Assembly (NCBI RefSeq): GCF_003019035.1
Contig: NZ_CP027447.1
Direction: 5' to 3' (one strand)
Origin: Escherichia coli
GTDB lineage: Bacteria > Pseudomonadota > Gammaproteobacteria > Enterobacterales > Enterobacteriaceae
DNA: 64,000 nt
Both the position numbers and the translations under genes were made by a program. The first letter of the stretch is position 1. Every line of letters starts with the position of its first letter. Positions 3,461 through 26,054 of this stretch are shown in pieces. The notes beneath the pieces are model-generated. The model did no database searches, had not been told where the DNA came from, and saw nothing but the letters and a program-made list of their open reading frames with translations.

Positions 3461-4314
3461 GCACCATCCTGAAATGGGCGGGAAATAAAACTGCCATAAT
3501 GTCCGAACTGAAAAAACATCTTCCTGCTGGCCCGCGACTGGTTGAACCTTTCGCGGGTTCCTGTGCTGTGATGATGGAGACGGATTATCCCAGCTATCTG
3601 GTTGCGGATATTAATCCTGATTTAATCAACCTCTATAAAAAGGTTGTCGCTGATTGTGAATCGTTTATATCTCGCGCCAGAGTTTTATTTGAGAACGCAA
3701 ACAGGGAGATGGATTATTACAACATAAGGCAGGAGTTTAATTACTCAACTGAAATTACTGATTTCATGAAAGCGGTATATTTCCTGTATCTCAATCGTCA
3801 CGGTTACCGTGGTTTATGTCGCTATAACAAGAGCGGGCATTTCAACATTCCCTACGGTAATTATAAAAATCCGTATTTCCCTGAAAAAGAAATTCGCGCA
3901 TTTGCAGAGAAAGCCCAGCGGGCAACGTTTATCTGCGCCAGCTTTGATGAAACGCTGGCGATGCTGCAGGTGGGGGATGTGGTGTATTGCGATCCGCCTT
4001 ATGACGGCACGTTTTCCGGTTATCACACTGACGGCTTCACTGAAGATGACCAGTATCATCTGGCATCCGTTCTTGAGCATCGGTCATCAGAAGGACATCC
4101 GGTCATTGTTTCTAACAGTGACACATCCCTGATCCGTTCGCTGTATCGCAATTTTACTCACCACTACATCAAGGCAAAACGCAGCATCGGCGTAGCAGCT
4201 GGTGAGAGTAAATCTGCAACAGAAATCATCGCTGTTTCTGGGGCACGCTGCTGGGTGGGATTTGATCCTTCGCGTGGCGTGGATAGTTCTGCTGTGTACG
4301 AGGTGCGTGTATGA
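3457..4314 (+). CDS. dam: DNA adenine methyltransferase (Dam family)
   Basis: DPPY catalytic motif (VYCDPPYDG) and AdoMet-binding-like EPFAGSCAV; GGAGG RBS; ATGA overlap with upstream gene. The ORF-track start 3397 was rejected as an N-terminal over-extension. Confidence 0.85.
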
Positions 4315-6725
4315 GTCATGACGATATGAGCAACTCTAGCGGCTTTAACGAGGCCGCTGCATCATTTTCATGGAACGGCCCGAAAAAGGCCATTAACCCT
4401 TATCTGGACCCGGCGGAAGTTGCGCCGGAGTCTGCACTTTCAAACCTGATCACTCTGTATGCTGCCGATAACGAGCAGGAACAACTGCGCCGCGAGGCAC
4501 TGAGTGAGCAGGTCTGGGAGCGTTATTTCTTTAATGAATCCCGTGATCCTGTCCAGCGCGAAATGGAGCAGGATAAGCTCATTAGCCGGGCAAAGCTGGC
4601 GCATGAGCAGCAGCGTTTTAATCCAGACATGGTCATTCTGGCTGACGTCAACGCCCAGCCTTCCCATATCAGCAAGCCGCTGATGCAACGTATTGAATAC
4701 TTCAGCAGCCTGGGCAGGCCAAAGGCTTATTCCCGCTATTTGCGTGAGACGATTAAGCCATGTCTGGAACGACTGGAGCATGTACGCGACAGTCAGCTAT
4801 CCACTTCTTTTCGCTTTATGGCAAGCCATGAAGGGCTGGACGGCCTGCTGATCCTGCCTGAAATGAGTCAGGATCAGGTGAAACGCCTGTCTACCCTTGT
4901 CGCTGCGCATATGAGCATGTGTCTTGATGCCGCTTGTGGTGATTTGTACGCCACCGATGATGTTAAGCCAGAAGAAATCCGCAAGACATGGGAAAAGGTG
5001 GCAGCGGAAACCCTACGTTTGGATGTCATCCCGCCTGCGTTTGAGCAACTCCGTCGGAAAAGAAACCGCCGTAAACCAGTGCCCTATGAACTCATTCCGG
5101 GCTCGCTGGCGCGTATGCTGTGCGCCGACTGGTGGTATCGGAAATTGTGGAAGATGCGTTGCGAATGGCGGGAAGAGCAGTTGCGTGCTGTCTGCCTGGT
5201 CAGCAAAAAAGCATCTCCCTATGTCAGCTATGAAGCTGTGATGCATAAACGTGAGCAGCGCCGTAAGTCGCTGGAGTTTTTCCGTTCTCATGAACTGGTG
5301 AACGAAGACGGAGACGCGCTGGATATGGAAGATGTGGTAAACGCCAGCTGCAGCAACCCGGCGCATCGCCGCAATGAGATGATGGCCTGTGTTAAAGGTC
5401 TGGAGCTTATCGCGGAAATGCGCGGTGACTGCGCCGTTTTCTACACCATTACCTGTCCGTCACGTTTCCATTCCACGCTCAATAACGGCAGACCCAACCC
5501 GACCTGGAAAAACGCGACGGTAAGACAAAGCAGCGATTATCTGGTCGGTATGTTTGCTGCATTTCGTAAGGCGATGCACAAAGCCGGGTTGCGCTGGTAT
5601 GGCGTGCGGGTGGCTGAGCCGCATCACGACGGCACAGTTCACTGGCACCTGTTGTGTTTCATGCGCAAAAAAGACCGCCGCGCCATTACTGCATTGTTGC
5701 GTAAGTTTGCTATCCGTGAAGACCGCGAGGAGCTGGGCAATAACACGGGGCCGCGCTTTAAGTCTGAGTTGATTAACCCGCGCAAAGGTACGCCAACAAG
5801 CTACATCGCGAAATACATCAGTAAGAACATTGACGGGCGTGGTCTGGCTGGCGAGATCAGCAAGGAAACGGGGAAATCCCTGCGTGATAATGCTGAATAC
5901 GTTAATGCCTGGGCGTCTCTGCATCGTGTTCAGCAATTCCGCTTCTTTGGCATTCCGGGGCGTCAGGCTTACCGCGAACTGCGATTGCTGGCTGGTCAGG
6001 CGGCAAGGCAACAGGGGGACAAAAAAGCAGGTGCGCCGGTACTGGATAACCCGCGCCTTGATGCAATCCTGGCTGCTGCTGATGCTGGTTGTTTTGCCAC
6101 CTACATCATGAAGCAGGGCGGCGTACTGGTTCCCCGCAAATATCACCTGATCAGAACCGCTTATGAAATCAACGAAGAGCCGACCGCCTATGGCGATCAC
6201 GGCATTCGTATTTATGGCATCTGGTCACCCATTGCAGAGGGCAAGATCTGCACTCATGCAGTGAAGTGGAAAATGGTTCGTAAGGCCGTTGACGTTCAGG
6301 AGGCGGCAGCCGACCAGGGCGCTTGCGCCCCTTGGACTCGTGGCAATAACTGTCCCCTTGCTGAAAATTTGAACCAACAAGGGAAAGACAAATCAGCTGA
6401 TGGGGACTCCAGAACGGATATTACCCGTATGAATGACAAGGAGTTGCACGATTACCTGCACAGTATGAGCAAAAAAGAGCGCCGGGAACTGGCTGCAAGG
6501 TTACGCCAGGTGAAACCGAAACGGCGTAAAGACTACAAACAGCGAATTACAGACCATCAGCGACAGCAGCTCGTCTATGAACTGAAGTCCAGGGGATTTG
6601 ATGGCAGCGAGAAAGAAGTCGATTTGCTCCTTCGCGGCGGCAGTATTCCGTCAGGAGCAGGCCTGCGTATCTTCTATCGGAACCAACGTCTGAAGGAAGA
6701 TGATAAGTGGCGGAACCTGTATTAA
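4311..6725 (+). CDS. replication initiation endonuclease (P2 gpA / 186 A homolog, rolling-circle type)
   Basis: 804-aa protein with HUH-like motif (VHWHLLCF) and downstream tyrosine region (YIAKYISKN); position after dam as in P2-like phages. Confidence 0.85.
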
Positions 6726-6817
6726 TTACGCGGGTTAACAATTCGTGCTCTTAATAATACCAGGCATATCAGGCCGATGAACGTAAAAAAACGTTTTACA
6801 TCAGTAAGATTATTATA

Positions 6818-6837
6818 TACTGTAAATATAAACAGTG
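6818..6837. promoter_or_regulatory. LexA (SOS) box
   Basis: TACTGTAAATATAAACAGTG matches the LexA consensus TACTGTATATATATACAGTA at 17/20 with intact CTGT-N8-ACAG; ~40 bp upstream of the ORF at 6878. Confidence 0.6.
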
Positions 6838-6877
6838 GTTATGTATACAGTATTGTTTTGGTGTCATAGGAGGAAAG

Positions 6878-7066
6878 ATGCAGGACTATTTTTTGGAGTC
6901 TTTGAAGCTCCAGCGCATTGATTTTTTTCTTAAGCTTGTAGCGGCTAGTGAGTGTAGTGATGAAGAGAAGGGGCTGGCTCTGCAGTGGGTTTCTGAATTG
7001 ACTGATGAACTCATGGCAAAAATCAGAAGCCACGAATACAACCGCTCAATGGATGTCATCAGCTGA
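6878..7066 (+). CDS. small SOS-controlled protein (62 aa), possible Tum-like antirepressor N-terminal module
   Basis: Strong RBS AGGAGG before ATG; immediately downstream of the LexA box; followed after 10 bp by the DinI-like ORF. Confidence 0.4.
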   Translation: MQDYFLESLKLQRIDFFLKLVAASECSDEEKGLALQWVSELTDELMAKIRSHEYNRSMDVIS

Positions 7067-7076
7067 GGTGACTTTT

Positions 7077-7310
7077 ATGCGCATTGAAATAATGATCGAT
7101 AAAGAGCAGAAGATTAGCCAGTCTACCCTGGACGCCCTTGAATCCGAGCTTTACCGCAATCTGCGCCCCCTGTATCCCAAAACGGTAATTCGCATTCGCA
7201 AAGGTAGCTCTAACGGTGTGGAACTAACCGGACTGCAACTGGATGAAGAAAGAAAACAAGTGATGAATATTATGCAGAAGGTGTGGGAGGACGACAGCTG
7301 GCTGCATTAA
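7077..7310 (+). CDS. dinI: DinI-family protein (77 aa)
   Basis: MRIEIMIDKEQ...VWEDDSWLH resembles DinI (MRIEVTIAK...WESADDW) in length and at both ends; LexA box upstream. Confidence 0.75.
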   Translation: MRIEIMIDKEQKISQSTLDALESELYRNLRPLYPKTVIRIRKGSSNGVELTGLQLDEERKQVMNIMQKVWEDDSWLH

Positions 7311-7502
7311 GAAACGTTGCCCCCAGGAGGATTCATTCTGATGGGGGCTAGTTTGGGCAATGAGTGAAATAAGGCGTAAGGTGGGCGGTTATTTTGATAA
7401 GTGATCGTCCGCTTTGTGTCAGAAGCAGAAGTGGGAGTGTCTGAGACTCTCTAAAAGTTGATGATTCACTTACAAAACCATTTTCCTGATGGATGCTTAC
7501 AC

Positions 7503-7838
7503 TTACGAATGATCATTCTGTTTAGTCTTCATGAGAAAATCCCGAATCTTTGCCAAGTTTGAATTTTCGGGGATTGAATCCATGTACGGATCACGCTCAA
7601 ACACTAATTGCTCAGATTCAACGAAAGCCTGCCACTCTACTGGGTCTAGCTCAAATCCCATTGCTGTCATATCACTTTCATCTTCCCCCTCGATCCAGTG
7701 GACTAAATAAAACAATTCATCATCAGGAGAATCATCCTCACCATCAACAATATCAACATCGGTTACAGTGATACGTAGGGTGGGATCGATTTTTGAGACA
7801 TAAATTCCTAACTGTGGTATAGGGGGAATATTGTTCAT
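7503..7838 (-). CDS. strongly acidic hypothetical protein (111 aa)
   Basis: 26 Asp/Glu versus 7 Lys/Arg; strong RBS (AAGGAG) on the minus strand; own transcription unit, convergent with dinI and divergent from the KAP NTPase. Confidence 0.55.
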   Translation of the reverse strand: MNNIPPIPQLGIYVSKIDPTLRITVTDVDIVDGEDDSPDDELFYLVHWIEGEDESDMTAMGFELDPVEWQAFVESEQLVFERDPYMDSIPENSNLAKIRDFLMKTKQNDHS

Positions 7839-8217
7839 GGAAACTCCTTTTATTGGTGTTTGCTATTTGAATAAAAATACGCCAAACAGAGTGTTAACTG
7901 TGAATATGGAAAGAATCGTTGTAAGTACCCCGCTTAGGTGTCCCATTCTATTTTAGAGGTTCTCGTGCATATGGATTATGTTATCTGAAAGTTAACTTCC
8001 GCTTCCCGTTCACAGCGAACATTCATCTTTGTAAACCCGTATGATCCGTTTTTCAAGTGGCCATTCAGATACGGATTTTCACTTCCTTGACAGTGCATGA
8101 CTATGCTGCATGAAATCGCATGATCGATTGAGGATCGTCTTTGCTCAGATCCGCCAGAACTGGCGGGCTTTTGCTCATGTCATGCATGTGCATGAAAACC
8201 ACTGCATAAAGCGGGCA

Positions 8218-8236
8218 GGCGTGGCGGGGATACGAG
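8218..8236. other. candidate cos cohesive-end core (P2/186-like)
   Basis: GGCGTGGCGGGGATACGAG then GCGCGCGCT; resembles the P2/186 cohesive-end sequence as I recall it (GGCG[A/T]GGCGGGGAAAGCA..). Recalled from memory, not verified. Confidence 0.3.
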
Positions 8237-8303
8237 CGCGCGCTTATTACTTTGATAGTACTCGGGTTATAATATGGATGACTATCTATCTCGGAGAATG
8301 TGC

Positions 8304-9956
8304 ATGTCATTGGACTATATTAAAGAACAGTTGTCAGACTTTATTTCATCTGCAGAACCTGAGGTAATGGCTATTCAGGGTGAATGGGGGATTGGGAAAA
8401 CCTATACTTGGAATACTTTCTTAAAGGAAAATAAAAATAAGATTGCATTTAATAGATATAGTTACGTCTCTCTTTTTGGTGTTAATTCATTGGACGCATT
8501 AAAATATTCCATCTTTGAAAATACAATTACAAAAGATTTTATTGGAAATAAACCTAATTTAAAAACAGCAACACAAAATACAAAGGGACTTCTTGAATCC
8601 TGCACTAGAAAGACCGCTCGTTTGTTAAAAGAAACACCTGTTGTGAAAAATTTCGCTACGACACTTGAGTCAATGTCATTTATGTCAATTACTAATGTTA
8701 TTGTAGTCATAGATGACTTAGAAAGACGTGGTAAAAATTTAGAAGTGAAAGATGTCTTAGGGTTGGTTTCTTTATTGAAAGAACAAAAAAATTGTAAGGT
8801 GGTTCTTTTACTTAATAATGGGACAAGTGGTATGGATGATTACTCCACTTATAAAGAAAAGGTTATTGATAGAGAGATTACCTATAACCCTACGCCAGAA
8901 GAATGTGCAGCTATAGCATATAAAAATAATTCTGATGTTCATAAATTATTAAGCAAATACTCCATTTCTCTGGGTATTAAAAATATTCGGATACTGAAAA
9001 AAATAGAGCGGTTTTTGCTAGCCTTGTTACCTGCTATTAACGTTAATTTTGATAAAATTGCAAATGAAGTCGCACGCTCCTTAACTTTGTATTGTTGGAG
9101 TCATTACGCATTTACTCCAGATGGAGATGTACCATCATTGGAATATATTAGAAATATGAGAAATATCTATATGCGTGATGAAAAAGAGGATGGAAAAGGA
9201 AAAAAATGGCTTAATACTTTGCTTATATATGGTTATAAAAAAACAAACGAACTTGATGAAGTCCTTATAGACATGGTTAAGCATGGATATATTGATATGA
9301 ACAATTTTCAAAGGCAAGTAAGTCTAAGAAATGATGAACTTATCCGTGATAGTAAGCGAGGTTCACTGTTTGAAGCATGGAAGCTTTTCTATAATTCATT
9401 TGAAGATAACCGAAATCAGGTTGTTGATAATCTATATCAAGCGGTGGTTGGTGGGATAGAGTATGTAACTCCAAGTGACTTGGATAGTGTTGTCGGACTG
9501 TATAGAGATTTAGATGAAAATATTAAAGCAAGTGAATTAATAAGTAAATTTATTAATTACGGCAATGATGCTCTTAAGGAATATGTCCAATCTATTTACA
9601 TGAATGTTCATCCTATAAAAGATGCTGAGTTAAAGTCAAAAATCCAAGATTATTCTATTACTTTAAATCTGGATGGTTCTATAAAGGATGTTCTAATAAA
9701 ATTATCAAGTCAGAATGGTTGGTCTGATAGGCACGAGGAAATATTGGATGCTGCCTCAGAGGATGACTACTATGATTTATTTAAAAAAGTCATTCTTGAA
9801 GGTGGTGATTCAATAATAGCCACTGCTCTTAAGTTTGGTGGGTATAGCAATGGTTCAGATAGAATGAAACGCATCGGAGAAAAAGCGAGAAATGCTTTGA
9901 TAAGAATTGGAAATGAGTCGAAGATTAATAAAATACGTGTTAGACGGTATTTGTAA
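8304..9956 (+). CDS. KAP-family P-loop NTPase (standalone, ~550 aa)
   Basis: Walker A GEWGIGKT (KAP signature GxWGxGK[ST]) and Walker B VIVVIDDLERR; no obvious transmembrane insert; AT-rich; perfect TATAAT at 8268-8273 upstream. ATG 8304 chosen for RBS spacing; the track ORF begins at 8274. Confidence 0.8.
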   Translation: MSLDYIKEQLSDFISSAEPEVMAIQGEWGIGKTYTWNTFLKENKNKIAFNRYSYVSLFGVNSLDALKYSIFENTITKDFIGNKPNLKTATQNTKGLLESCTRKTARLLKETPVVKNFATTLESMSFMSITNVIVVIDDLERRGKNLEVKDVLGLVSLLKEQKNCKVVLLLNNGTSGMDDYSTYKEKVIDREITYNPTPEECAAIAYKNNSDVHKLLSKYSISLGIKNIRILKKIERFLLALLPAINVNFDKIANEVARSLTLYCWSHYAFTPDGDVPSLEYIRNMRNIYMRDEKEDGKGKKWLNTLLIYGYKKTNELDEVLIDMVKHGYIDMNNFQRQVSLRNDELIRDSKRGSLFEAWKLFYNSFEDNRNQVVDNLYQAVVGGIEYVTPSDLDSVVGLYRDLDENIKASELISKFINYGNDALKEYVQSIYMNVHPIKDAELKSKIQDYSITLNLDGSIKDVLIKLSSQNGWSDRHEEILDAASEDDYYDLFKKVILEGGDSIIATALKFGGYSNGSDRMKRIGEKARNALIRIGNESKINKIRVRRYL

Positions 9957-9994
9957 TTTGGGAGGGGGATTTTCATCCCCCCCACACATTTTAT

Positions 9995-11026
9995 CTAATT
10001 CAATGAATAATCTTTGAAGGCTATTATTTTTTTCTTTAGCCAAATATTAACTTCTACAAGTCTTTTTTGTAAAGGAATTAACTCATTTCGCACAAAAACG
10101 CAACCGGCTTTCTCTATATCCCCAAATCCCCCAACATTATTAGGCATTATCCCCATCATTTGTGGCGGTACACGGTGCGCAGCCATCATGTCATCGCGGC
10201 TGACATTTTTGATATTCAGAAACTCATCCTTCGCCGCGACTTCTGACAGAGGAATGATCTGAAGGCCGTCCTTTTTGCCGTTAGGCGAGTACATAAACAG
10301 GTTGCGGAAGTTGCCTGGACCTTTGGCGCTTTTCATCGCGTTGCGGAGATTGTTCACATCCTCCTGATTCTGCGCGGCGTCGGTCATGTACATGATGAAG
10401 CCTGCATGGCTGCCGTTGATGTAATACTTACGGCGGAACAGCGTGGCAGACTCGTTGAGCAGGGCGGATGGAATGGCAGAAAGATAGCCTGGCAGGCCGT
10501 AGATCTCCTGGTTGATGTCCGGTTCCATCAGATGAAAAATGCTGCCTTTCGTGAACTGATACGGCTGGGTTGTCATACCGTATTGCACAAACCAGTAGGT
10601 ATCCAGGTCTAACCCACGTCGGGTGTATTTTGCCAGCGCAGGCTCAAGGGCGATAACTTCACCGAATCGGTTCGTGCGTTTCTCCAGGTAGGCGTTACCA
10701 AATACCAGATAGTCCTGCACAAAACGCGAAAAAGCCTGTTGGCTGAGCAGCGGATGAGGGATATAGGTACTGGTCAGAATGTTGCACTTTACTGCAATCG
10801 GGGAACTGTGATGCACGGCAGCGCGGAAGGTGCGTGCCAGTCCGTCAAAACTTACGGGTGGCTCATACCAGCGATCCGTCTGTACGCATTCCACATAGTC
10901 CAGCAGTTCGCGGCGGTCCAGTACAGGAATGGGATCACCAAAGCTGAAAGCTTCGGCTGAAATTTGATTTTTATGCTGACTCTGTTTCGTCGTCGCAGCG
11001 CGGTTTTTCTTACTCTTTCCCATCAA
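9995..11026 (-). CDS. portal protein (P2 gpQ homolog)
   Basis: 343-aa ORF, leftward, followed by the terminase ATPase gene; P2 Q-P arrangement. Confidence 0.9.
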   Translation of the reverse strand: MMGKSKKNRAATTKQSQHKNQISAEAFSFGDPIPVLDRRELLDYVECVQTDRWYEPPVSFDGLARTFRAAVHHSSPIAVKCNILTSTYIPHPLLSQQAFSRFVQDYLVFGNAYLEKRTNRFGEVIALEPALAKYTRRGLDLDTYWFVQYGMTTQPYQFTKGSIFHLMEPDINQEIYGLPGYLSAIPSALLNESATLFRRKYYINGSHAGFIMYMTDAAQNQEDVNNLRNAMKSAKGPGNFRNLFMYSPNGKKDGLQIIPLSEVAAKDEFLNIKNVSRDDMMAAHRVPPQMMGIMPNNVGGFGDIEKAGCVFVRNELIPLQKRLVEVNIWLKKKIIAFKDYSLN

Positions 11027-12789
11027 AAAATCTCCACAATATTACTTGTATTGGCGGACTCGCCCTGCAGTGGTTCGTTAAACAGTGCGTGCATTGTTGC
11101 CCAGGCCAGATCGGCGTGGCTGGCTTCTTCGCTGCGGCTGGCTTCATAGGTTGGGCGGTTGCCGCTGGCGGTGGTGGCGCGACGGATTGCCATAAATGAT
11201 TGCGCAATGTCGGTGTGCCCGGCGTCAAACTCCAGACGGCGGTGGCTGATAATGTCGTAGGCCTTGAGTACCAGGGCGTTTTTAACGTTGGGGTTGTAAA
11301 CAAACTCCCGGACGGCAGGAAAGAACGCTTTCACGTTCTCATAAACCCCGTGACCTACACCTGTCGAGTCGATGCCGATATAGGTCACGTTGTACTGTTC
11401 GGTCAATTTTTTGATGGCATCCGCCTGGGCGCGGAAGTCCATCCCGCGCCACTGGTGACGCTCAAGAATGCGGAACTTACCGCCCGGCACGGCTGGCGGA
11501 GCCACCACCACGCATCCGGCACTGTCGCCGTTCTGCGTACCTTTCGCCGGGTCATAACCGATCCATACTTCGCGCCAGCCAAACGGGCGCAGGGCCAGTG
11601 CATGAAAGTCGGTCCAGACTTCCCAGCTGTCCACCATGCACGCCTGCAGTTCGCTGAGCGGAAACACGGACGCGAGATCGTCCACGAACTCGCACATCAG
11701 CAGGTTCTGGTATTCATCCGGGCTGTACTCCATGCGCAACTGGTCAAGGTCGAACAGGTTACAGCCGCCGCGCACCGCGTCTTCCACGGTGACTATCTGG
11801 CGGTATTGCCCGTCTGCGCACAGCAGGCCGGGGGCCAGATTGCTGTGGGACAGGTCGATGTCCACCTTGTCGGCTTTGTTGCGTCCACGGTTGAACAGCG
11901 CACCGGACCAGAACGGATAAGCACTGTGGGTCAGGCTGGATGGCGTGGAAAAATAGGTTTGTCGCCATTTCTTGTGAATAGCCATCCCGGAAGCCACTTT
12001 GCGCAGCTCCTGGAATTTCGGTATCCAGAAATATTCATCCAGATACAGGTTGCCGTGATAACTCTGGGCCGTGCGGGCATTGGTGCCGAGGAAGTAAAGC
12101 GTGGCTCCGTTAGGAAGCACCATCGGATCGCCTTTCAGCTCCACCTCCACTTCTTTGGCGAAGTCGATGATGTACTGTTTAAAGACGTGGGCCTGTGCCT
12201 TACTGGCGGAAAGGAAAATCTGGTTACGTCCGGTAAGCAGGGCGTCAATCAGGGCTTCACGGGCAAAGTAAAAGGTCGCGCCGATCTGGCGAGACTTCAG
12301 CAGGTTGCGGATGCGGTTGGTTTTTCCGGCTTCCCACCAGTGGCGCTGGTAGTTGAACATGGAGGAATGGAAGATTTCTTCCAGCTTCTCAATCTGCTCA
12401 TCGGTGAAAACATTCTTTTCCGGCTGACGGCGTGGGCCTTTATTGCGGTTGGCGACGTTAGGGTTTAAGTCGGCTTCGTTGCCGCCATTGTTAAACTTGC
12501 CGATCCGCGCGTGGCGCTCAGACTGGCGCGCCAGCAGGTCAATCTCTTTGAAATCTTTCCCTTCTTTGTGCTCCTTCATAATGAGCTGGCAGTAGCGTGC
12601 GGCGGTGGTGAGCTGCATCTGATCCAGCGGCCCATAGTCACCCCACTTGTCGCGTTTTTTCCAGCTGTGAACGGTTGCAACTTTCTCGCCCAGCATTTCA
12701 GCAATGCGGGCTACGCGGTATCCCTGAAAGTACAGCAACATGGCCTGCCGACGGGGATCGAGATCTGCGGGTGTCAGTGTGGTGTTCAT
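11023..12789 (-). CDS. terminase large (ATPase) subunit (P2 gpP homolog)
   Basis: 588-aa ORF divergent from the O-N-M-L operon; size and position match P2 gpP. Confidence 0.9.
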   Translation of the reverse strand: MNTTLTPADLDPRRQAMLLYFQGYRVARIAEMLGEKVATVHSWKKRDKWGDYGPLDQMQLTTAARYCQLIMKEHKEGKDFKEIDLLARQSERHARIGKFNNGGNEADLNPNVANRNKGPRRQPEKNVFTDEQIEKLEEIFHSSMFNYQRHWWEAGKTNRIRNLLKSRQIGATFYFAREALIDALLTGRNQIFLSASKAQAHVFKQYIIDFAKEVEVELKGDPMVLPNGATLYFLGTNARTAQSYHGNLYLDEYFWIPKFQELRKVASGMAIHKKWRQTYFSTPSSLTHSAYPFWSGALFNRGRNKADKVDIDLSHSNLAPGLLCADGQYRQIVTVEDAVRGGCNLFDLDQLRMEYSPDEYQNLLMCEFVDDLASVFPLSELQACMVDSWEVWTDFHALALRPFGWREVWIGYDPAKGTQNGDSAGCVVVAPPAVPGGKFRILERHQWRGMDFRAQADAIKKLTEQYNVTYIGIDSTGVGHGVYENVKAFFPAVREFVYNPNVKNALVLKAYDIISHRRLEFDAGHTDIAQSFMAIRRATTASGNRPTYEASRSEEASHADLAWATMHALFNEPLQGESANTSNIVEIF

Positions 12790-18375: not shown

Positions 18376-18397
18376 AAGCCAGCCTTTATTTTTTTAT
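18365..18397 (+). terminator. rho-independent terminator after S
   Basis: GGCTGGC-ATAAAA-GCCAGCC hairpin followed by TTTATTTTTTT. Confidence 0.55.
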
Positions 18398-19251
18398 GTG
18401 ATGGCCCCTATCTTTTGATTGTAATAACTATAATCAGCATGTTCTTCTGTATAAAAAATCTCAAATGCAGACAAGATGTTTGCGTAAAAACTATCCTTGG
18501 ATATAGAGGTTTTTTTATTGATGGATGCCAAAAAGTTTGTTATAAATCTTAATGATGCTGAGAAAAGAAAGTGCCCTTTCACCCAATGATTTATAGATGT
18601 ATTTTCTGGGAATTGAATGTTGTTTTTTTCTGCCAAACCATTAGTAGTAAACGATTCAGGTAGTCTATTGATATATTCATCTATTTTTTTCTTGCATATA
18701 TTGTATGAATTTCTTGATTGCATAAAACGATCACAGGAATCACCAATTACGGAGCATCCTAATTTATTTAAATGATTGTGAATATCTAGTATTATTAAGT
18801 TCTCAATGTTGCTATAGAAGTTAGAAAGCCAATTTCCTACATCTATTTCCTGCATTTTTTTTGTGCAAAAACGGCCTGTGTTTTTGAGTATGTGTGATAT
18901 GATTTTTTCATCAATGATTGTGTTTTCTATTGAATATCCCTTTGTGTAAATAATATTTGTATGCTTTACTATGTTGTCAGAAAAATGGTTTAGATCCGAA
19001 TCTCTGGCAACTATGGCGTTTATTTCTCCTGAGGTTATTTTTTCGATATATGGTTGTAAAGCTTCACATCCACCAACATCTTGAACTTCTACATTAAAAC
19101 GACCATTTTTTTTAAAAATTATTTCCCAAAAAGCAATGTCATCTTCACCTTCAACATAGACCATAATATCAGCATCATAAAATAAACTGATCACATTTTC
19201 CGCTTCATTAGACCAAGAAAAGTTTTCTGCATTAGAATCATTGATTAGCAT
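18394..19251 (-). CDS. Toprim/DUF4435-like protein (AriB-like), 285 aa
   Basis: Toprim-like acidic motifs VYVEGEDD (conserved Glu) and IVARDSD (DxD); overlaps the upstream ATPase gene by 14 bp; very AT-rich. Confidence 0.65.
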   Translation of the reverse strand: MLINDSNAENFSWSNEAENVISLFYDADIMVYVEGEDDIAFWEIIFKKNGRFNVEVQDVGGCEALQPYIEKITSGEINAIVARDSDLNHFSDNIVKHTNIIYTKGYSIENTIIDEKIISHILKNTGRFCTKKMQEIDVGNWLSNFYSNIENLIILDIHNHLNKLGCSVIGDSCDRFMQSRNSYNICKKKIDEYINRLPESFTTNGLAEKNNIQFPENTSINHWVKGHFLFSASLRFITNFLASINKKTSISKDSFYANILSAFEIFYTEEHADYSYYNQKIGAIT

Positions 19252-20494
19252 TGACTAATCTCTCCATATTGAAAATGGCGTTTTTATATTTAGATGCAAC
19301 TTCAGGAGAATGGGTTGCAGCAATAATTTGTGCATTAGGATTTAATTTTTTTATGGCAGGGATAATATTTCTTTGCCATTGAATATGTAAGGAAAGCTCA
19401 GGCTCATCAGTTAGGAAAATATATTGTTGCCCTCTTTGTAAGAGGGTCTCAATGAATAAAATTAGCAGTTGTTTTTCACCAGAAGATAAACTTTCTAAAA
19501 CTATTGGCCCATAGGTGTTATTTATGACTAACAATCCCGATTGAAAATGAAATTCTTTATCGGTGATAAAATTTCTTAGTATGCTTAAGAATTGTTCTAT
19601 TGGAGAAAATATTTTTGATGTTTTCTCTTTTGAAGTTAATGACATTTTGATTATTTTTTGTGTTTTTCTCAATGCTTCGATCGAACGAATATCAAAGCCT
19701 CTTTCACTTTTATTCTTTAATTCTGAAATGGTATTATTAATTGTTTCAACATGAAAGCTGATTTTTTTACGAATGTTTTGATCAATAGCATTTAACTGTG
19801 TGTATGCATTAAGGAGGTTTTGTTTTTCTTCCTCTTTGTTAAAGTTAATGTTGTAAGCAGGATTCTCCATATCTTCCTTGCTATAAAGTATTGATGCCAG
19901 AACCTCTTTTTGAAGTTCTAATGCGATATCTCTGGCTTTCTGGGATAGTTCAAGTTGATATTTTGTAAGTTCCTGTATTAATTCTGATAACTTATAGTCA
20001 ACAGGGTTGATAAAACGAGAGCCATATTTATCTTTAACTTCAAAATCATCACTATTTCTTAATCTGTAAACAGATAAAGAAGAAAGCGAGACTAGTTTTG
20101 CTAGTTCTGTTCTTAGTTCTTCTGTTTCATCATGCACTCTACGTCTATAACTAAGAGATATTCTTCTATCATCAGTGTTAAATAAACGAATTGTGTGTTT
20201 TTTAGATGAAAGCTGATATTCTATTTTGGAAAATGGAGATGTATCGCTTTCAAGTTTTTTGACTTTGATTGTTTTTGTCTTTTTTTTATCTTTAAGTTTT
20301 ATTTCGGCACTATTGAAATCAGCATTGTTAATACTGTCCAAATCAAGGGATAATATTGAGTGCAGAAGGTTCATAAAGGTTGTTTTACCCGTGCCATTTC
20401 GGCCTATAATAATGTTTACATCATCATTAAATGAGCAGGAACAGTTTAATCGCTGCCAAAAGCCATTAATTGTGACGCTTTGAATTTTATACAT
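19238..20494 (-). CDS. ABC/SMC-like ATPase (AAA_15/AAA_21-type, AriA-like), 418 aa
   Basis: Walker A GRNGTGKTT, ABC-signature-like LSSGEKQ, Walker B YIFLTDEPELSLH, H-loop IIAATHSPEV, with a charged coiled-coil-like insert between them. Confidence 0.75.
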   Translation of the reverse strand: MYKIQSVTINGFWQRLNCSCSFNDDVNIIIGRNGTGKTTFMNLLHSILSLDLDSINNADFNSAEIKLKDKKKTKTIKVKKLESDTSPFSKIEYQLSSKKHTIRLFNTDDRRISLSYRRRVHDETEELRTELAKLVSLSSLSVYRLRNSDDFEVKDKYGSRFINPVDYKLSELIQELTKYQLELSQKARDIALELQKEVLASILYSKEDMENPAYNINFNKEEEKQNLLNAYTQLNAIDQNIRKKISFHVETINNTISELKNKSERGFDIRSIEALRKTQKIIKMSLTSKEKTSKIFSPIEQFLSILRNFITDKEFHFQSGLLVINNTYGPIVLESLSSGEKQLLILFIETLLQRGQQYIFLTDEPELSLHIQWQRNIIPAIKKLNPNAQIIAATHSPEVASKYKNAIFNMERLVNANQ

Positions 20495-25016: not shown

Positions 25017-26054
25017 TTATATTTGCCTACCTCCTAATAAAATGTGTGAGGTGTATTTGTTGGTTTTCAATAACCTTGCTACAATTATACAGGTGGTTAC
25101 AATAAGGAAAACAAATGAAGGGGTTATGATGAGGTTATATATGAGTGGATTTTCGCATAGGTTATTAATGTTCACGTATGCCTCTATTCTGTGAAAAATA
25201 AACGACGAGATTATATAGATGGGAAAGGTGTAAGTACCGACAAAGGATGTGGCTCGTATAAATAAATTATTTTTCGTTGATAAAAATGTATAAGCATATA
25301 TAAGCGATATGCTTCCGGCGAAGCCAATGAAGTAGCGAAATATAATAATGAATGATTGATGCCAGAAATCAACATTCTCATATGTCATTTTAGATATGTA
25401 AATATAATACTCTCTATTCCATAGGAGAAGCATACCAATCCATGTTAATACGGCTAACACACCAATTTTGTGCCTATTTCTAGAGGCAAAATCTAAAATG
25501 CGATGGGCGGATATACCAGCGATAAAATAAGGGGCCATAAATTTAATTTTGTCCATATTCCAATCATCTCCATATGCAAGGGATATACTAAATATCAGTA
25601 AATAAAGCACCACAGAATATTGTTTGCTTATTGAGTGACAAATAGTATAAACAATAGATACTGCAAAGAGTGCAGAAAGGAACCAGAAGGCGTAGATGGC
25701 TCCATATCTAATATTTATTAAATTTATATCTCTTCCCACAAAAATGGATTCAGCAATGAACCATGCAATGGATGGGATTATTAACTGCATGAATTTTCTT
25801 TTGATAATTGATGATGGTTTTCTCTTGAGAGAAAAATAGAAAAGATAGCCGCTAAGCAGCATAAAAAATGGCATGTGGAAGCTGTAAATGGTAATAAATA
25901 ATGGGTTGTCAAAAAAATTGAAACTATCTTTTTTTACAAACTGAATTGAATGGCCCCACACGACAAAAATTATAGCTAATCCTTTCATTGAGTCTATAAT
26001 GGAATTTCGAGTGCTGGGTGTCTCTGTTATAATAAGATGTGGTTCGTTTTTCAT
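25017..26054 (-). CDS. acyltransferase family 3 integral membrane protein (O-antigen/LPS O-acetyltransferase-like)
   Basis: 345 aa, highly hydrophobic multi-TM; N-terminal region GLAIIFVVWGHSIQF typical of acyltransferase-3; very AT-rich; opposite strand to tail genes. Confidence 0.75.
   Translation of the reverse strand: MKNEPHLIITETPSTRNSIIDSMKGLAIIFVVWGHSIQFVKKDSFNFFDNPLFITIYSFHMPFFMLLSGYLFYFSLKRKPSSIIKRKFMQLIIPSIAWFIAESIFVGRDINLINIRYGAIYAFWFLSALFAVSIVYTICHSISKQYSVVLYLLIFSISLAYGDDWNMDKIKFMAPYFIAGISAHRILDFASRNRHKIGVLAVLTWIGMLLLWNREYYIYISKMTYENVDFWHQSFIIIFRYFIGFAGSISLIYAYTFLSTKNNLFIRATSFVGTYTFPIYIISSFIFHRIEAYVNINNLCENPLIYNLIITPSFVFLIVTTCIIVARLLKTNKYTSHILLGGRQI

Follow-up and report, generated by a model that had tools for sequence, protein, structure and literature searches.

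The NTPase gene at positions 8304-9956

The DNA considered here, referred to as the window, is a 64,000-nucleotide stretch of an Escherichia coli genome (contig NZ_CP027447.1, assembly GCF_003019035.1), and our subject is the gene at positions 8304-9956, which encodes a P-loop nucleoside triphosphatase (NTPase) of the KAP family, here called the window protein. A preliminary description, made from the letters of the window, had placed the gene between a candidate cos site and a phage portal gene and had put it forward as a stand-alone anti-phage candidate. As discussed below, the window protein is a soluble KAP-type NTPase with intact motifs and an acidic, all-alpha solenoid; its gene is under purifying selection, has no conserved partner and is accessory cargo of a P2/186-like prophage, located in the cos-proximal gpA-gpQ defence hotspot.

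In the six-frame list of open reading frames (ORFs), the frame is open on the plus strand from a first ATG at 8274 to 9956, corresponding to 560 residues, and initiation at the ATG at 8304 gives 550 residues. The start at 8304 is backed by a GGAG sequence at 8293-8296, by the start that RefSeq assigns to this gene in E. coli PSJ-29 and by homologues that open with the same MS.E... as the window protein. The two motifs listed in the preliminary description, GEWGIGKT (Walker A) and VIVVIDDLERR (Walker B), are present at their places and are invariant across an alignment of 39 family members. The gene also lies in an AT-rich block, as described: the GC content is 0.30-0.36 over positions 8200-9999, whereas the gpA, portal and terminase genes on either side have 0.51-0.61.

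The suggestion that the gene carries its own TATAAT promoter stands in part. The hexamer is present at 8268-8273, but the best -35 element is TTATTA, which has three of six matches and an 18-nucleotide spacer, and the site was not called as a promoter in the consensus scan. Moreover, promoter-like sites around the NTPase gene were not in excess (10 found versus 10.5 expected from shuffled sequences). A putative promoter of the cassette itself, at 8244-8273, is plausible from these elements. At the other end, a hairpin with a G5-7/C7 stem, GGGAGGGGGAT-TTTC-ATCCCCCCC, occupies most of the gap between the NTPase and portal genes (9960-9983). The case for this hairpin as a terminator is weak: it has a folding energy of -15.9 kcal/mol but a z-score of only -1.25 relative to shuffled sequences, and it lacks a T-run. 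No Rfam RNA family was found in the interval 6600-10200.

Location in the prophage and interchangeable cargo

The host element is a P2/186-like E. coli prophage. On the 5′ side of the NTPase gene lie a gpA-type replication endonuclease gene (4311-6725), a 62-residue ORF, a DinI/Tum-like ORF and, between the DinI-like gene and cos, an acidic 111-residue ORF on the minus strand (7503-7838; DUF8087, phrog_17127); on the 3′ side are portal, terminase and scaffold genes. The NTPase and portal genes converge, with the NTPase stop codon ending at 9956 and the portal ORF at 9995, and the 38 bp previously given as the distance to the portal stop codon is correct.

The candidate cos site is borne out by a block at 8092-8246 that is common to 85 P2/186-like phage records and holds GGCGTGGCGGGGATACGAG at 8218-8236, close to the P2/P4 cohesive-end GGCGAGGCGGGGAAAGCAC seen in P4 constructs. 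Four aligned prophages with different cargo are identical up to ...GAGCGCGCGC (window position 8243) and unrelated from 8244 on. Therefore, the cassette extends from one base past the cos block to the portal gene, and the NTPase ORF starts 60 bp after the conserved block. The gene is thus located between cos (to 8243) and the portal ORF (from 9995), as first described.

The cos-proximal gpA-gpQ interval, which is the old/tin locus of P2, was defined as a defence hotspot by Rousset et al. 2022 (PMC9122126), and a 2026 preprint that surveyed 1511 P2-like elements describes it as the main P2 defence hotspot (bioRxiv 10.64898/2026.02.27.708500). In the supplementary table of Rousset et al. 2022, "KAP_NTPase" appears 69 times among P2-hotspot arrangements while the main text is silent on it; KAP is mentioned only in this hotspot table and in the HHpred tables of validated systems (PMC9122126).

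With a 2.1-kb query (8000-10100), 1269 E. coli records match and 127 do so at a coverage of at least 80% (126 of 5426 genomes). The gene is hence present in some 2% of the complete E. coli genomes and in about 10% of those that have these flanks. The 8.3 kb upstream of the NTPase gene is matched at a coverage of at least 80% in 555 genomes, with the matches ending at 8243-8257. Two backbones that are approximately 97% identical and share the chromosomal integration site carry different cargo in the slot. One of the alternative cargos consists of a ParA-family protein and a SIR2 protein (PADLOC LmuA/ThsA-like, E 2e-18), the other of an Old-family ATP-dependent nuclease (PADLOC Old, E 5.6e-16). 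A prophage of E. coli EC416 has a 77%-identical allele in the same slot, and Salmonella 186-like prophages have a homologue there that is only 44% identical. The slot is thus variable, as had been proposed, and since it holds other cargo in near-identical backbones, the gene is not a conserved core component of these prophages. Collectively, the position between gpA and gpQ beside cos, the variability and the presence of defence genes as alternative occupants are all the features that characterize the gpA-gpQ hotspot.

Profile matches and extent of the family

The assignment of the window protein to the KAP P-loop NTPases is upheld by the Pfam profile KAP_NTPase (PF07693), which matches residues 8-197 with an independent E-value of 1.8e-8; the match, though significant, covers only model positions 6-228 of 293. 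Weaker Pfam matches were obtained to AAA_16, AAA_22 and NB-ARC. Homologues bear precomputed PF07693 assignments, and relatives in the AlphaFold database (AFDB) are titled KAP NTPase domain-containing protein. No NCBIfam family was found at E<=1. Among the phage-protein profiles of PHROGs, phrog_4740 (function unknown) matches over the full length (E 7.7e-144).

The best match in the defence library, and the only strong one, is PDC-S49 of PADLOC-DB v2, a single-gene "phage defence candidate" (E 4.3e-25, 86.6 bits, residues 6-434 on profile positions 9-442 of 624; these are profile E-values and not PADLOC calling thresholds). The match covers approximately 70% of the profile and leaves the last ~180 profile positions unmatched. 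The only other PADLOC match, to PDC-S20, is marginal, and no Tmn-, Qat- or Avs-named model is among the matches. The preliminary description had stated that the protein could not be assigned to a named system. This holds insofar as no named system matched, but the family already figures in PADLOC as the candidate PDC-S49, is listed in the table of Rousset et al. and has a relative in Reve (see below).

The exact protein sequence is already public on 87 contigs under the name "P-loop NTPase fold protein", and a word-indexed search gave 884 matches. Among representatives at 50% identity, 3874 clusters match at E<=1e-3 and 1047 at E<=1e-30, and nearly all listed family matches are 550-580 residues long and aligned end to end. 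Likewise, uncharacterised proteins of equal length that are titled KAP NTPase domain-containing number in the hundreds in AFDB50 and come from numerous phyla. The family ranges over Proteobacteria, Bacteroidota, Spirochaetes, cyanobacterial plasmids and phages, with members in Burkholderia phages and the 109-kb Escherichia phage CMS-2020a, on Legionella, Rhizobium and Nostoc plasmids, and on Klebsiella and E. coli plasmids of ~105-113 kb. The relatives in phage CMS-2020a and on these Klebsiella/E. coli plasmids of phage-plasmid size are full-length, at 27-29% identity. One AFDB match carries the name of the fungus Tuber magnatum, a case of possible contamination or horizontal transfer.

No neighbour of the NTPase homologues is conserved across six contexts, which include Vibrio, Shewanella, Pseudomonas, Salmonella and E. 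coli EC416 and comprise prophage, chromosomal and island locations, and no PADLOC defence model matched the neighbours in a PADLOC and PHROGs run. Because no neighbour is conserved between contexts and the slot holds one gene, the NTPase gene is considered to stand alone, in agreement with the preliminary description.

Predicted fold, conserved residues and selection

An AlphaFold2 model of the window protein, based on the alignment of 39 sequences, has a mean predicted local distance difference test (pLDDT) score of 83.1. The closest solved folds to its ATPase part are Cdc6/ORC, TnsC, MuB and Apaf-1-like, and the N-terminal domain as modelled is a Cdc6/ORC/STAND-like AAA+ ATPase. Invariant in the family are Walker A, Walker B (D137, D138, E140), the sensor-1-like N171 and the lid residues N227-I228-R229. 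We take this N-I-R motif to be sensor-2-like.

Classical KAP/YobI proteins have transmembrane helices at the place where the window protein has a polar insert (residues 83-118). No transmembrane segment was detected anywhere in the window protein: the highest mean Kyte-Doolittle value over 19 residues is 1.41, at the Walker B strand. Since a hydrophobic segment is absent and the insert is polar, the protein is a soluble exception among KAP NTPases, similar in this respect to PifA. The insert has a net charge of +5 in the window allele versus a family mean of +0.5, so its charge is not conserved. DNA binding, which the Cdc6/ORC/TnsC-like fold and the basic insert had brought up as a candidate function, was therefore dropped; the family is also acidic, with a mean net charge of -14 in the C-terminal half.

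The preliminary description had found no recognisable motif in the long C-terminal region, and this is supported for its ~300 residues by structure prediction and by Pfam and PDB searches. Modelled alone, residues 246-550 consist of helices only (pLDDT 85.6), and the C-terminal helical region typical of KAP proteins is present. Structural matches to the model are confined to generic solenoids (TPR, HEAT, PPR and designed repeats), at Z <=6.8, and the model has no enzyme fold. No Pfam domain was found with the alignment of residues 246-550, and PDB sequence searches with full-length and C-terminal profiles gave nothing meaningful. The C-terminal half varies more than the core, with column entropies of 1.5-1.7 versus 0.8-0.9 bits. 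Membership of the STAND/AVAST (Avs) proteins, which are characterized by a separate effector domain with a repeat sensor and by matches to NB-ARC, NACHT or Avs models, was also considered and rejected.

Comparison with the 77%-identical allele gave a dN/dS of 0.14 at a dS of 0.85, and hence the gene is maintained as a protein-coding gene under purifying selection. By region, dN/dS is 0.11 in the N-terminal half, 0.18 in the C-terminal half and highest, 0.29, in the insert. In a prophage remnant of E. coli PSJ-29, the portal gene is frameshifted and the late genes are gone while the NTPase gene is intact; this one example is consistent with a benefit for the host. In this remnant (locus positions 1-663 and 9305-12307) ogr lies directly beside ybjL, and a second, different "P-loop NTPase fold protein" adjoins the CI repressor.

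Comparison with known defence systems

The closest relative with a tested phenotype is Reve. According to the available part of the preprint by Moura de Sousa et al., eight unannotated P4-hotspot loci were tested, among which Reve is a single-gene system from the P4-satellite hotspot; Reve (pFD425) reduces the plating of seven of seven Drexlerviridae by 40-fold to 4x10^5-fold, with no effect on the other phages listed in that part (bioRxiv 10.64898/2026.02.27.708500). The Reve sequence used here is the Dataset E1 entry that precedes UnknownSys8, an assignment based on file order and the domain description in File S3 and not on a header. This putative Reve sequence encodes 586 residues with GEWGVGKT and FIIDDLER motifs. 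Reve and the window protein are similar in size (586 versus 550 residues), are both soluble and share GEWG(I/V)GKT, (I/V)IDDLER and N-I-R, and Reve, like the window gene, is cargo adjoining cos, in a P2-dependent element. The top fold match reported for Reve is likewise ORC (bioRxiv 10.64898/2026.02.27.708500).

By blastp the two proteins are 27% identical over 229 residues (E 9e-14), and hhalign of the family profiles gives a probability of 99.0% (E 7.5e-18), limited to residues 1-250 of the window protein. For the remaining ~300 residues neither sequence-profile nor profile-profile comparison detected homology, the alignment ending at approximately residue 250. Reve and the window protein thus share the NTPase engine and differ in their C-terminal modules. 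The sole hint of a wider likeness is that the broad phrog_4740 profile matches each protein over the greater part of its sequence; Reve also matches PDC-S49, more weakly. The Reve family is small (48 matches, enterobacterial) compared with the more than 3800 clusters of the window family.

EF_KAP from Enterococcus provides defence that depends on Walker B, with equal protection at multiplicities of infection (MOI) of 1 and 10 (PMC12632615). Compared by its description, EF_KAP has a single KAP P-loop NTPase followed by ~320 residues without a known domain, like the window protein, but it has two N-terminal transmembrane helices and a Gram-positive host, whereas the window protein has no such helices. 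PifA of the F plasmid, the founding KAP member, excludes T7; it has the KAP Walker A (G.WG.GKT) and Walker B (hhhhDDL[DE]R) motifs, lacks transmembrane helices, is borne on a mobile element as the window protein is, and acts against phage. PifA differs, however, in its length of 741 residues and its pairing with the repressor PifC. Membership of the PifA family was rejected on the grounds that the likeness is at the level of motifs (hhalign probability 27.8% over 68 columns) and that no pifC-like gene lies nearby. On T7 infection, PifA causes membrane depolarisation and nucleotide leakage (PMC13001434).

KAP or KAP-like P-loop NTPases also occur in defence as Tmn (Gao 2020; YobI-family) and as QatA of QatABCD. 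Tmn forms a membrane decamer with two transmembrane helices inside the P-loop domain and helical-repeat arms that sense a phage protein; its ATP turnover is raised and the cytoplasm collapses (PMC13001434). QatA works with QatB, the QueC-like QatC and the TatD-like QatD. Both systems are ruled out for the window protein, because it has no transmembrane segment, no Qat partner genes lie beside its gene, and no Tmn- or Qat-named PADLOC model matched. P2 Old and Tin occupy the same gpA-gpQ hotspot, but these proteins are unrelated to the NTPase and the analogy is one of position only.

Interpretation and alternative explanations

Taken together, these data suggest that the window protein probably acts as a single-protein, anti-phage NTPase switch that protects the lysogen against other phages. 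In this scenario, the protein would be expressed in the lysogen from the cassette's own weak promoter (8244-8273), which is an assumption. The solenoid, and perhaps also the variable insert, would recognise a phage-made protein, as the precedents of STAND, KAP and Tmn proteins suggest, and recognition would switch the NTPase, probably by driving oligomerisation or remodelling. Phage development might then be blocked either because the target is sequestered or dismantled or because a host component is engaged; these routes are suggested by the lack of a recognisable nuclease, protease, NADase or pore domain.

Several points weigh against an anti-phage role. PDC-S49 is a computational candidate, and a literature search found no paper that names it. 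KAP_NTPase is listed in the hotspot table of Rousset et al. yet is outside the systems that they validated (PMC9122126), and the phenotype data are confined to relatives at <= ~30% identity, such as Reve, whose specificity and mode of action are not transferable since the C-terminal halves do not align. Moreover, known defence genes were not found in the sampled neighbourhoods outside prophages, and the promoter is weak by consensus. Structure and Pfam searches recognised no effector domain in the C-terminal half, and the step that stops the phage is consequently pure conjecture.

Abortive infection offers another way in which such an NTPase could act: once triggered, it would kill or arrest the host, for example through runaway NTP hydrolysis or a PifA-like membrane leak. 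Apart from a complete NTPase site, the window protein has no catalytic domain, and both PifA, which also lacks transmembrane helices, and Tmn provide precedents through membrane depolarisation and raised ATP turnover, respectively (PMC13001434). We nevertheless regard this as unlikely, given the absence of a hydrophobic segment (maximum 19-residue mean 1.41) and the motif-level relationship to PifA (hhalign probability 27.8%); furthermore, for EF_KAP, the one soluble-domain KAP protein examined in this respect, the equal protection at both MOIs was read as non-abortive by its authors (PMC12632615). It has also been considered that the cargo is aimed not at lytic phages but at other mobile elements, such as P4-like satellites, competing P2-like phages or plasmids. 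The gene adjoins cos, which is the sole region common to P2 and its parasite P4 (PMC9122126), and relatives are present on plasmids, including those of ~110 kb and phage-plasmid size, and in temperate phages. This target seems improbable, since lytic phages are what Reve, as a relative, and the slot occupants Old and SIR2 act on, and no feature specific to interference with satellites or plasmids came to light.

The protein could instead be a non-defence moron or an accessory ATPase of the phage life cycle, with a role in, for example, replication or packaging. In favour of this, the solved structures nearest to its fold (Cdc6/ORC, TnsC, MuB) belong to proteins that initiate DNA replication or serve transposition as ATPases, and the gene abuts cos and the packaging genes. 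The gene is, however, missing from ~90% of related prophages, where unrelated genes take its place; it is AT-rich foreign DNA, it is kept in the PSJ-29 remnant that lacks late genes, and homologues stand alone in chromosomes with no phage genes nearby. In addition, the acidic character of the family and the unconserved positive charge of the insert do not support DNA binding, and a life-cycle role is accordingly judged very improbable. The absence of an effector domain could also mean that the NTPase belongs to a multi-gene system and needs a partner, either a host factor or the small DUF8087 gene on the other side of cos. The latter is a backbone gene, found whether the cargo is KAP, Old-family or SIR2 and missing beside the 77% allele in EC416, and hence we consider it an accessory gene in its own right that does not act as partner to the NTPase. 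As no neighbour is common to the six contexts examined, the need for a partner appears highly improbable, the most so of the explanations weighed here, and a host factor may be needed at most.

A more specific version of the anti-phage switch is put forward tentatively, and we think it more doubtful than the switch itself. The window protein would represent a widespread, self-contained defence family of uniform, ~550-570-residue soluble proteins without an effector that kills the cell or degrades nucleic acids; the acidic solenoid would capture a particular phage protein and the Cdc6/ORC-like ATPase would sequester or dismantle it with the use of NTP, in a non-abortive manner. Within this scheme, different C-terminal modules, as in the window family and Reve, could be mounted on one conserved NTPase engine. 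An effector-less remodelling mechanism of this sort would be one not yet described for any anti-phage system.

Other features of the prophage and the window

The coordinates of the features are given in Table 1. The pattern of a LexA box occurs twice in the window (0.57 expected), and a perfect copy, CTGTAAATATAAACAG, lies at 6820-6835, 5′ of the 62-residue ORF (phrog_698) and the DinI-like ORF (phrog_189) at 6878-7310 on the plus strand. This arrangement is similar to that of the SOS-controlled Tum antirepressor operon in phage 186.

A second AT-rich island (18394-20494, minus strand; GC 0.31-0.41) lies within the late-gene region and holds a PARIS-type AriA/AriB pair, and the prophage therefore has at least two cargo loci. 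A third (25017-26054, minus strand; GC 0.33) encodes a 345-residue acyltransferase-like protein, possibly a surface-modifying moron, whose likeness to the NolL fucose acetyltransferase (NCBIfam E 7e-19) does not reach the curated cut-off. An AT-rich island at 50965-52746 (plus strand; GC 0.34), far downstream of the phage genes considered here, carries a 593-residue ORF, which has no PADLOC match; a short, sub-threshold stretch is like the Hailong effector HalA (E 1.3e-5).

Table 1. Features of the NTPase cassette, its boundaries and a second cargo locus in the window.
Feature	Positions	Strand	Basis and remarks
Coding sequence of the soluble KAP-family NTPase, 550 residues	8304..9956, stop codon included	+	ORF list, Pfam, PADLOC, PHROGs, RefSeq start, dN/dS
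Walker A GEWGIGKT, residues 26-33	8379..8402	+	translation; G26, W28, G29, G31, K32, T33 invariant
Walker B VIVVIDDLERR, residues 132-142	8697..8729	+	translation; I136, D137, D138, L139, E140, R141 invariant
NTPase core and helical lid, residues 1-245	8304..9038	+	Walker A 26-33, Walker B 132-141, sensor-1-like N171, N-I-R 227-229
Variable helical insert between Walker A and B, residues 83-118	8550..8657	+	pLDDT <50 over 83-87 and 92-118; polar
C-terminal all-alpha solenoid, residues 246-550, putative sensor/interaction domain	9039..9953	+	without enzyme fold
Cassette-specific leader	8244..8303	+	weak -35-like TTATTA 8244-8249, perfect -10 TATAAT 8268-8273, GGAG ribosome-binding site 8293-8296; read from sequence
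Conserved cos block, left slot boundary	8092..8246	.	~90% identity in 85 P2/186-like phage records
Portal gene (gpQ-like), right slot boundary, outside the cassette	9995..11026	-	ORF; phage portal protein annotation in matching genomes
G/C hairpin, possible bidirectional terminator	9960..9983	.	lies in the 38 bp that separate the two converging genes; weak
AriB-like ORF	18394..19251	-	PADLOC AriB E 2e-21
AriA-like ORF	19238..20494	-	PADLOC AriA E 2.5e-38

Implications

Much of the background to this gene is already recognised, namely cargo in the P2 hotspot, single-gene defence of the KAP type, the PADLOC candidate and a tested relative. Specialists already see both the hotspot and the KAP NTPases as associated with defence, and in this context the candidate is sound but unsurprising. 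If its role were confirmed, a very widespread family of effector-less, soluble KAP NTPases would join the validated anti-phage repertoire. It would also provide a tractable E. coli representative in its native prophage context, with natural alleles at 96%, 77% and 44% identity, and a route to studying how KAP-type NTPases stop phages. Since the engine is shared with Reve and the C-terminus is not, comparison of the two could reveal whether specificity is determined by the C-terminal solenoid. In phage therapy and typing, the gene would be one more prophage-borne determinant of host range.

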